A DNA stretch of 64,000 bases from Rickettsiales bacterium. Its GTDB lineage: Bacteria > Pseudomonadota > Alphaproteobacteria > Rickettsiales > UBA1997. Shown in pieces: positions 37,601 to 38,776 of this stretch. Both the position numbers and the translations under genes were made by a program. Under the pieces are notes generated by a model that saw nothing but the letters and a program-made list of their open reading frames with translations, was not told where the DNA came from and made no database searches. The stretch's first letter is position 1. Each line of letters starts with the position of its first letter. The DNA lies in assembly GCA_018969185.1 (NCBI GenBank), contig JAGWYT010000001.1, positions 13,959-77,958 on the forward strand, written 5' to 3'.

Positions 37601-38776
37601 ATGACAACAGAGACCAAAGTTAAAAAATCGCCTTTTTCAGTTTTGTTTGTTGATGATGAAGATCAAGCAAGGAAGTATTTTGAGAAGGGATTGAAGAACG
37701 ATTTTAATGTAATGTTGGCATCGTCAGTTGATGAAGCACAAACAATAATTAAGCAATATAATCATAGCATTGCTGTTGTAATAACTGACCAAAGAATGCC
37801 CGGAGGCAATGGTGTGAAGCTTTTAACTTTCTTACGTGAAAATTATCCACATATTATAAGACTTTTGACCACCGCTTATTCAGATCTTGCTGATGCAATT
37901 GAAGCGGTTAATAGTGGTGAAATTTTGCGTTATATTCAAAAGCCGTGGGATTATAATATGTTAAAATCTGAAGTTAGACAAGCGCTTGAGCTTTTTGAAT
38001 TGCGCCTTGAGAGAAATCAGATGATGTATGAAAAAATCATGGTTAAAAGAAAAATGGCGAAAGTTGAAAGAGTGAAAGCTTTGATGTTGCTTGCTAAATC
38101 TTTTTCATTTTTAAATTCTGCCGATATTGCGGTTAATAATTTTATCAAAGAATTTACTCAAAATATTAATGATTTAGAAGATGAGCGTGACTTTGAATCC
38201 TTTGATTTCGGCAATCAAGACGTGCTTGAAACAAAATTCATGCTTGATTTATTTACAAGAATTCAACAAGAAATTTCCCTAAAAAATAATTATAATTTTG
38301 ATGAGGAAGTTAATTCAGATTCTCTAAAATTACTTTTTGAAAACTTGAATAAAAATACTAATTCTAACCTTCAAATCAATGTTTCAGAAGGGGTGGTTGG
38401 TAAAGTTAGTTCAAGTGGATTTTCAATTTTAGCAAAAAAATTATTAGAGCTTGCGGCATCGTCAAAATCGGTTTCATCAATTGCCATAACAAAAGCAGAA
38501 AATGGTTTTGCTATTACGCTAAATGCTGGACAAATTTTGCTTGAAAAAAATAGTAATCTTTTTGTGGTAAATCCAAGTAAAGTTTTAGAGCAATTTTATG
38601 TTGATATATTAATGTGCTACGTAATTGCGGCGCATCATGGTGGGGTTTTAGAATATTCGTTCGTGAATGATAATTTGAGCTTGAATATAAAGTTGCCAAA
38701 TAATCCTGAAAATTCTCTTTTACCTAAGAGAACAAAAGAAGAGATGGATAATGTTATTTTGTCTGTAATGCTTTAG
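37601..38776 (+). CDS. Receiver protein with a degenerate kinase-like C-terminal domain (PhcQ/PhcR-like)
   Basis: 391 aa. REC VLFVDDEDQ...VVITDQRMPGGNG...RLLTTAYSD...IQKPWD, the same subtype as REC1 of 9852..11858. The C-terminal ~230 aa have no H-box and end in an HATPase-like remnant (AAHHGGVLEYSFVNDNLSLNIKLP). Confidence 0.8.
   Translation: MTTETKVKKSPFSVLFVDDEDQARKYFEKGLKNDFNVMLASSVDEAQTIIKQYNHSIAVVITDQRMPGGNGVKLLTFLRENYPHIIRLLTTAYSDLADAIEAVNSGEILRYIQKPWDYNMLKSEVRQALELFELRLERNQMMYEKIMVKRKMAKVERVKALMLLAKSFSFLNSADIAVNNFIKEFTQNINDLEDERDFESFDFGNQDVLETKFMLDLFTRIQQEISLKNNYNFDEEVNSDSLKLLFENLNKNTNSNLQINVSEGVVGKVSSSGFSILAKKLLELAASSKSVSSIAITKAENGFAITLNAGQILLEKNSNLFVVNPSKVLEQFYVDILMCYVIAAHHGGVLEYSFVNDNLSLNIKLPNNPENSLLPKRTKEEMDNVILSVML

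Follow-up and report, generated by a model that had tools for sequence, protein, structure and literature searches.

Phc-type quorum sensing, in which the signal is a 3-hydroxy-fatty-acid methyl ester, is encoded by a phc cluster that has been reported as largely restricted to Betaproteobacteria (PMC10653808). In Ralstonia, the response regulator PhcQ binds and stabilises the LysR regulator PhcA, the stability of PhcA is lost in phcQ mutants, and studies are only beginning to explain how PhcQ influences PhcA (PMC13320629); the C-terminal region of PhcQ carries the label 'uncharacterized' in the literature (PMC6989110). In Leptospira, LvrB, a histidine kinase (HK) controlled by a receiver (REC), shows a signalling-helix mechanism, and LvrC is a Rec-Bergerat protein that has been proposed to sequester a sigma factor (PMC13269768). 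Here we describe a gene at 37601..38776 (+ strand) in a 64,000-nucleotide stretch of the genome of a Rickettsiales bacterium (contig JAGWYT010000001.1, positions 13,959 to 77,958), hereafter the window. This gene, the target of the present analysis, starts with ATG and encodes 391 amino acids (aa), made up of a receiver, a signalling helix and a pseudo-histidine-kinase tail; the GenBank entry identical to its product is labelled merely 'response regulator' (MAG: Rickettsiales bacterium, on a contig of 144 kb, MAG being a metagenome-assembled genome). The protein is probably the response regulator, of PhcQ type, in a quorum-sensing system of the Phc kind, and its pseudo-kinase tail would serve as a protein-binding output under the control of phosphorylation.

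Receiver domain and kinase ancestry of the tail

The original prediction had placed at this position a receiver protein with a kinase-like tail that lacks an H-box and resembles PhcQ or PhcR. The open reading frame (ORF) was confirmed as such, and the motifs quoted for it were all found in the product, namely TDQRMPGGNG (residues 62-71), RLLTTAYSD (87-95), QKPWD (113-117), AAHHGGVLEYSF (343-354) and LNIKLP (361-366). Homologues of the target numbered 577, and when 1.84 billion representative proteins were searched exhaustively by HMMER, a profile of the tail alone matched 537 clusters at 50% identity, which argues that the gene is real and under selection. Nearly all of these clusters are 360-430 aa long, with the tail beginning near residue 157; thus, the combination of REC and tail is a fixed architecture.

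The sole Pfam match in the target was Response_reg (PF00072) at residues 14-125 (E 5.5e-16), corresponding to a receiver domain at residues 13-125 (37637..37975, + strand) of the PhcR/PhcQ/RpfG-like subtype, with the motifs DQRMP, TTAY and KPWD. Its acidic pair D18/D19, the acceptor D63, T91 and K114 were invariant in the alignment of 45 family sequences, and the receiver therefore looks functional. The NCBIfam models matched through the receiver part of other regulators only, the top one being a NosR-family REC-HD-GYP regulator (residues 14-141, E 5.3e-34), and the top sequence matches of the receiver in the PDB were HupR and the receivers of HD-domain proteins. Although the RpfG/NosR-type regulators have the receiver subtype in common with the target, the match ends at residue 141, and the target has a tail of kinase fold and no HD-GYP domain. 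The remaining 265 residues (126-391) matched no curated family in Pfam or NCBIfam, from which it is concluded, in accord with the original prediction, that the C-terminus holds no DNA-binding or HD-GYP domain.

Structure prediction by AlphaFold2 gave the tail a kinase fold and not some unrelated, well-known output domain, both in the full-length protein modelled with the family alignment (pLDDT 88.6, pTM 0.77) and in residues 118-391 modelled alone (pLDDT 89.9, pTM 0.86). The modelled receiver (residues 13-113) is followed by a single, continuous helix of 50 residues (118-167), which according to DSSP runs from α5 of the receiver into a signalling or DHp-like helix 1, and then by return helices at 174-186 and 203-224 (37952..38272, + strand, for this helical region as a whole). 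Next comes an alpha/beta sandwich (235-366), in which the modelled order of strands and helices is that of the Bergerat fold, and a last helix. By Foldseek, hhalign, HMMER and column analysis, the degenerate CA (Bergerat/HATPase_c-like) domain was placed at residues 226-367 (38276..38701, + strand). When the whole target was compared with the PDB by Foldseek, the first match was the Rec-kinase LvrB (8vc9, E 2.6e-13, 389 columns). With the tail alone, all of the 50 best matches were DHp-CA cores of histidine kinases, HK853, HprS, ZraS, CusS and SrrB among them, and this list also contained DivL, RetS and ChpT (4fpp, 4fmt), which are non-canonical proteins of the kinase fold; the isolated CA domain of ThkA matched the tail model with a TMt of 0.63.

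When the tail was compared by hhalign with individual kinase modules, pair by pair, support for homology was weak: E was about 1e-03 for six of eight modules, always in collinear register, and the probability against PhcS was 5.9%. Significant support came from the exhaustive tail-profile search and its follow-ups, and not from full-length or pairwise searches. Besides the 537 clusters, the tail profile found the 972-aa protein P0365 (E 6.5e-11), whose HisKA (249-315) and HATPase_c (864-971) domains mark it as a genuine kinase. By hhalign, the tail profile aligned with P0365 at 95.3% probability (E 2.1e-08) over 171 columns that comprise DHp helix 2 and the entire CA domain, and it also matched by sequence the structurally solved kinases ZraS (E 2e-06) and ThkA (E 3.6e-04). 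Because of these matches, the relation of the tail to a kinase transmitter is one of homology, beyond likeness of fold; the tail is an evolutionarily decayed histidine-kinase transmitter, consisting of a DHp hairpin and a Bergerat/CA domain.

The register of the H-box was set by hhalign to canonical PhcR (FLAHELNTPL) and by HMMER to ZraS (HEIRNPL). At the phospho-His column so defined, no conserved acceptor histidine was found in the 45 members, in which the column holds T (13), N (10) or S (5) among others, and the target has Ser169 followed by Phe170. Column analysis of the same sequences found no conservation at the positions of the N-box Asn, G1 (DxGxG), the F-box and G2 (GxGxG), and in many members the lid segment has been shortened or lost. 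No Pfam kinase domain rose above threshold in any of the 45, HATPase_c being seen in a single member at E 0.094 and HisKA remaining undetected. Since neither the acceptor-His column nor the ATP-binding N, G1 and G2 boxes are conserved, the tail is a pseudo-kinase, and the H-box-less, kinase-like tail foreseen from the DNA is indeed present. A relic of the H-box, T-H-L-R-N-P-L, persists in 15 of the 45 members, which form a gammaproteobacteria-like subgroup; its histidine was considered as a retained acceptor and rejected, as anchoring of RNPL on ZraS and PhcR puts it one residue past the acceptor position.

Other positions of the tail are strongly conserved. On the long helix F132, E144 and R157 are invariant, and E137 (43/45) and K145 (44/45) nearly so, and the tail ends in the signature LL.CYL...HHGG....I.LP, of which HHGG corresponds to residues 345-348 (38633-38644 of the window). 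H345, which aligns with the non-catalytic '...HGG...LP' histidine of ordinary kinases, is present in 45/45 members, and H346 is conserved too. It is to be observed that H345 has been strictly kept though all catalytic kinase motifs have decayed, and that canonical PhcQ does not have it.

Comparison with canonical PhcQ and other regulators

Several homologues of the target bear the JGI (KEGG-derived) name 'probable response regulator PhcQ'. For a direct comparison with canonical operons, a genome collection was scanned with an alignment of PhcB, which has relatives in at least 592 species genomes, and 80 Burkholderiales loci among the matches listed, including nine from Ralstonia and many from Cupriavidus, served as the canonical reference set. 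The order in 74 Burkholderiales loci is PhcB, PhcS (~445 aa), a protein in the PhcR position (median 375 aa) and one in the PhcQ position (median 335 aa), and these sizes agree with the published ones (PMC8578825). Hidden Markov models (HMMs) of canonical PhcB, PhcS, PhcR and PhcQ were built from these 74 phcBSRQ operons. The PhcQ HMM matched the target over HMM positions 3-250 (E 1.2e-62), whereas the PhcR HMM covered the receiver only; thus, where the original prediction had left PhcQ and PhcR side by side, the target proved to be precisely PhcQ-like, and its candidature as a PhcR orthologue was rejected on the same ground. The receiver HMM of the family, run over the 74 operons, scored ~145-158 bits with the PhcQ-position proteins and ~104-128 bits with those in the PhcR position. 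In profile-profile comparison, the whole family matched canonical PhcQ with E 2.6e-66 and canonical PhcR with E 1.2e-44. When the receiver was left out, hhalign of the family still gave a clear match to PhcQ (E 4.2e-13, 97.9% probability) and a weak, collinear one to the kinase tail of PhcR (E 2-3e-03), while the tails of canonical PhcQ and PhcR yielded nothing with each other (E 0.29). In view of these post-receiver matches to both sides, the window subfamily appears to be an intermediate that joins the C-terminal part of PhcQ to a kinase origin.

The features common to canonical PhcQ and the target are the receiver subtype, the post-receiver helix LR.ER..L..EK..V with its essential Arg, the D.W..D...E motif, the aligned last tail helix, the absence of a DNA-binding domain and, in relatives of the target, the place downstream of phcB/phcS. 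R157 of the target, invariant in the family, aligns with R154 of Ralstonia PhcQ, and R154C is an adaptive mutation of Ralstonia PhcQ that behaves as a phcQ deletion (PMC6989110). Unlike canonical PhcQ, which at about 335 aa is ~55 aa shorter than the target and has a shortened tail with DEAGG or DGKG, the target subfamily keeps the whole CA-like alpha/beta domain with its invariant HHGG, and it occurs in Rickettsiales and other non-Betaproteobacteria, with no PhcA seen nearby. That the tail is simply the same domain as the tail of canonical PhcQ was considered and rejected, since the tail HMM was blank in the 80 loci and the link is visible only profile to profile.

Among other described proteins, PhcR and LvrB, both of the Rec-HK type, have the architecture of REC, long signalling helix, DHp and CA in common with the target, in line with the rank of LvrB as its top full-length structural match, and the family profile is collinear with PhcR-like neighbours as well as with canonical PhcR. 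Unlike them, the target lacks an acceptor His as well as the N, G1, F and G2 boxes, and a separate, genuine PhcR-like Rec-HK is encoded at 9852-11897. LvrC resembles the target in that a receiver controls a non-kinase output of the GHKL/Bergerat fold; it is a putative anti-sigma factor, proposed to bind a transcription regulator, and it stands at the end of a relay from a hybrid kinase to a Rec-HK, an architecture that parallels the target locus (PMC13269768). However, LvrC has no DHp hairpin and resembles RsbW/SpoIIAB, its sequence match to the target is confined to the receiver, and it lies outside the top 50 matches of the tail. DivL, RetS and ChpT share with the tail a DHp-CA fold that is reused for protein-protein signalling or phosphotransfer without the normal autokinase chemistry, but they have no N-terminal receiver of the PhcQ type, and the acceptor column holds His in ChpT and Tyr in DivL against Thr, Asn or Ser in the target family. 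LqsR/PhcX, encoded beside the phc genes in Ralstonia, is another response regulator of quorum sensing that has no DNA-binding domain; since its output is GGDEF-like (PMC10653808) and the tail of the target has a kinase fold, LqsR/PhcX was rejected as a relative. A distant Phc-like locus, L011, does encode an extra receiver protein of LqsR/PhcX-like size (338 aa, 11157-12173), which belongs to a family unrelated to the target.

The Phc-like gene set and its genomic setting

Counterparts to PhcB, PhcS, PhcR and PhcQ were all found in the window by homology and by the canonical HMMs, which amounts to a complete Phc-type gene set. The PhcB-like protein (32423..33811, + strand) is an S-adenosylmethionine-dependent methyltransferase of 462 aa and a putative autoinducer synthase; its homologues are named '3-hydroxypalmitic acid methyl ester biosynthesis protein', i.e., PhcB, by KEGG/JGI, and it retains the motifs KPLGYAGDY and GLFDYLSD. 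It is 35% identical, end to end (E 2e-107), to the PhcB-like protein from an annotated betaproteobacterial operon on a plasmid of Paraburkholderia graminis, which encodes in addition a PhcS-like protein, a 134-aa receiver and a 344-aa regulator.

The methyltransferase gene is flanked by two genes for PhcS-like hybrid sensor kinases, assigned by Pfam and the PhcS HMM. The first is a membrane sensor of 857 aa (29764..32337, + strand), with four to six hydrophobic segments and the order transmembrane sensor, HisKA, HATPase, REC and kinase core; the second (33808..36477, + strand) has 889 aa and is its paralogue at 49% identity. In both, the PhcS HMM matched the membrane sensor with the first kinase core and then again the second kinase core, the respective segments of the 857-aa protein being aa 10-436 (HMM positions 7-443) and aa 608-855. 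Scored against the canonical PhcS kinase core, the second cores do better (domain scores of 176 and 257 bits) than the first ones (113 and 98 bits). The 889-aa kinase is 70% identical to a 915-aa kinase of L005; in the closest relative, where one kinase alone comes after the methyltransferase, that kinase is the orthologue of the 889-aa protein. LvrA was the best NCBIfam architecture match of the window sensors, below its cut-off. The fused PhcS-REC-kinase architecture recurs in the gammaproteobacteria-like loci L007, L008 and L011.

The PhcR-like protein (9852..11897, - strand; 681 aa), assigned by the PhcR HMM, Pfam and motifs, is a Rec-controlled histidine kinase with two extra receivers. 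PhcR HMM positions 6-372 aligned end to end with its residues 18-393 (E 3.8e-61), and it has a real H-box, AHEMRN. The receiver subtype of the target had been said to recur in its first domain: the first receiver does carry TDQKMP...TTAY...KPWD, but not TDQRMP. Its end had been put at 11858, whereas the ORF reaches 11897 by a mechanical call from a TTG start. REC-kinase-REC proteins of similar architecture adjoin family members in L002 and L012. An ORF of 3,696 aa (12230-23320) stands between the PhcR-like gene and the rest of the locus.

The arrangement of these genes was looked up within 10 kb of seven family members that lie on long contigs. A PhcB-like gene and a MASE8 sensor kinase were found in this range in 6/7 loci. 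Four of the six, those of P0002, P0022, P0023 and P0084, have no toxin-antitoxin (TA) pair and run from the methyltransferase through the kinase and, optionally, a PhcR-like Rec-kinase to the family member; of the other two, that of P0113 has a permuted order and that of P0090 has other genes in between. The closest relative, at 71% identity, has the methyltransferase, then the 915-aa fused kinase and, after a gap of 270 bp, the target homologue. The original, tentative assignment of the target to the sensor locus at 29.7-36.5 kb is thereby supported: in relatives, the methyltransferase and sensor kinase have the homologue immediately downstream of them, with no TA pair, and conservation of the gene goes together with that of the PhcB-like and sensor genes. 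The relatives in which it is encoded together with phcB- and phcS-like genes are L002-5, L007, L010 and L011. In addition, 15 contig sizes recur in both the list of target-family homologues and that of the PhcB-like methyltransferase. A metagenome scan with the full-length family alignment, which was driven by receiver motifs, drew mostly unrelated receiver proteins and serves as a rough enrichment test only, found a PhcB-like gene in 7 of 18 family or PhcQ-like loci against 3 of 62 receiver-only loci. As a further observation, the gene content of L012, a locus in a Rickettsiaceae MAG, suggests that the family may also be used in a phosphorelay independent of the methyltransferase.

In the window itself, a TA pair separates the target from the second PhcS-like kinase, ~1.1 kb upstream, as had been predicted; by Pfam and NCBIfam, the pair comprises a RelE/ParE (HI1419-type) toxin (36934-37257, + strand) and an HI1420-type antitoxin (37247-37579, + strand), and the target starts 22 nt past the stop codon of the latter. 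The pair is missing at the equivalent position in the relatives L005, L002-4, L010 and L007. It is preceded by a spacer of 456 bp (36478-36933) that contains direct repeats, namely a 42-nt unit in two copies 154 nt apart and an 18-nt unit, GGCTTGAGCGACGG, in three copies; the 15-nt core that was tested occurs nowhere else in the window. Possibly, these repeats represent a small element, mobile or palindromic, that came in together with the TA module. Since the loci of relatives hold the phcB-phcS-phcQ-like order without the TA pair, the pair and its repeat-bearing spacer are probably a local insertion into a phcB-phcS-phcQ-like operon. Scans for promoters and terminators were uninformative in this AT-rich DNA, with 16 promoter-like sites against 11.9 expected.

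Several further genes of the surroundings were recorded. The region is rich in TA genes, with a BrnT-like toxin and a CopG-like antitoxin just downstream of the target (39094-39644), a PIN-domain protein upstream of the locus (27746-28156) and, inside the locus, the RelE/HI1420 pair described above. Farther downstream are a 79-aa fragment of HlyC, the RTX-toxin acyltransferase (39652-39891), a 328-aa protein without a family match and an RTX-repeat protein of 2,326 aa (40982-47962). At 48086-49390 (+ strand), ~9 kb downstream of the target, there is an outer-membrane channel of the FadL/TodX type for hydrophobic compounds, and another such channel is encoded directly upstream of the PhcB-like gene of the distant locus L007 (2965-4113); these channels could be an uptake or export route for the fatty-acid methyl ester signal. 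Just beyond the FadL-like gene lies a tyrosine recombinase of the phage-integrase family with an N-terminal SAM-like domain (49582-50577, - strand), which may be a housekeeping Xer protein or the marker of a mobile region. In L011 (3530-8644), a TonB-dependent receptor, an AMP-binding/PP-binding enzyme and a thioesterase stand between the sensor and the regulators.

Proposed mechanism, alternatives and significance

In the proposed mechanism, the two PhcS-like hybrid kinases would phosphorylate D63 of the target, possibly via the PhcR-like Rec-kinase. As in LvrB, this phosphorylation may repack the long helix in a dimer and change the presentation of the pseudo-kinase tail, which most likely binds partner proteins rather than DNA. 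By analogy with PhcQ and LvrC, the output would consist in the binding, release or stabilisation of a transcription regulator encoded outside the window, and the window kinases and the target would form a relay parallel to that of LvrA, LvrB and LvrC.

A number of points weigh against a PhcQ-type role of this kind. The dimeric state and the repacking of the helix are carried over from LvrB by analogy. Neither a PhcA-like LysR gene nor any obvious partner gene for the target was found in the 64-kb window. The family tail HMM matches nothing in the 80 canonical Burkholderiales loci, and from residue 170 on the likeness to the canonical PhcQ tail is weak though collinear (hhalign E 7e-04); this weak match and the ~55 aa by which canonical PhcQ is shorter make it uncertain that the output function is conserved. 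The paralogue P0050 (L012, 8114-11565) has a REC-kinase-REC protein on one side and an Hpt protein of 120 aa on the other, and there is no methyltransferase gene within 10 kb of it; the family is therefore not exclusive to Phc loci. Finally, in one Ralstonia study PhcQ affected signal production and not signal transduction to PhcA (PMC6989110).

This last result is also what favours a different, less probable but by no means negligible explanation, in which the target modulates the kinases. Its DHp-like hairpin would dock on, or heterodimerise with, the PhcS-like and PhcR-like kinases, as in the pairs RetS-GacS and DivL-CckA/DivK, or its receiver would act as a phosphate sink that drains phosphoryl groups; either way it would tune the balance of kinase and phosphatase activities and feed back on signal synthesis by PhcB. 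The Ralstonia phcQ mutants make less signal with transduction apparently intact (PMC6989110), the tail shares its ancestry with kinase modules of the same loci, DivL and RetS are among its structural matches, and no transcription factor is linked to the target in the window. On the other hand, the 2026 work on direct PhcQ-PhcA binding and on the loss of PhcA stability in phcQ mutants (PMC13320629) speaks against such a modulator, and a pure phosphate sink needs no ~265 conserved tail residues, no invariant H345 and no architecture fixed across 537 clusters.

Two other explanations appear highly improbable. A catalytically competent tail, acting as a ChpT-like histidine phosphotransferase that passes phosphate between receivers, or as a kinase whose nucleotide binding is unorthodox, would be in keeping with the ChpT structures among the matches, the T-H-L-R-N-P-L relic, the conserved H345 and H346, and the Hpt gene that follows P0050 in L012, which suggests use in a phosphorelay; the motif analysis nonetheless makes it unlikely, since the relic His is one residue off a column that has no conserved His and is Ser169/Phe170 in the target, the tail has a shortened lid and no N-box Asn, G1 or G2, and H345 corresponds to a non-catalytic residue of ordinary kinases. 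With just as little probability, the target is an orphan response regulator that merely happens to lie near the sensor locus, split off by a mobile TA module and co-transcribed with it, outside the Phc-like system. The TA pair and repeat-containing spacer between kinase and target, the distance of only 22 nt from the antitoxin stop codon and the existence of family members without a nearby methyltransferase (L012, and L103, L113 and L120 in the metagenome scan) agree with this notion, but in the closest relative and in more distant ones alike the kinase downstream of the methyltransferase is immediately followed by the homologue, and the target is homologous to canonical PhcQ.

With a PhcQ-type regulator as the preferred explanation, a broader picture may be sketched, to which we give rather less credence. 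PhcQ proteins may be decayed Rec-controlled histidine kinases, of which the Rickettsiales/gammaproteobacterial subfamily would keep the ancestral state, a complete pseudo-kinase; the dead DHp-CA module would have found new use as a phosphorylation-gated binder of transcription regulators, and Phc-type quorum sensing by fatty-acid methyl esters would be far wider than thought, extending to Rickettsiales with fused PhcS-REC-kinase sensors. PhcQ as a kind of protein is already known, and public pipelines label relatives of the target as PhcQ. What is new with respect to the literature searched, in which no paper paired PhcQ with 'pseudokinase', is the kinase-derived and catalytically dead nature of the tail, the distinct, longer subfamily with its fixed architecture of REC and pseudo-kinase in 537 clusters, and the occurrence of all the Phc-type genes as a complete set in Rickettsiales and in further non-Betaproteobacteria.

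If true, the presence of a kinase-derived DHp/CA module and a long signalling helix in the PhcQ lineage would provide a concrete structural hypothesis, under which the null-like R154C substitution falls on the signalling helix. The locus shows a complete set of Phc-type genes outside Betaproteobacteria, against the background of PhcB relatives in at least 592 species genomes. Rickettsiales are mostly host-associated bacteria, and the finding raises the question of what use cell-density signalling is to a Rickettsiales bacterium.

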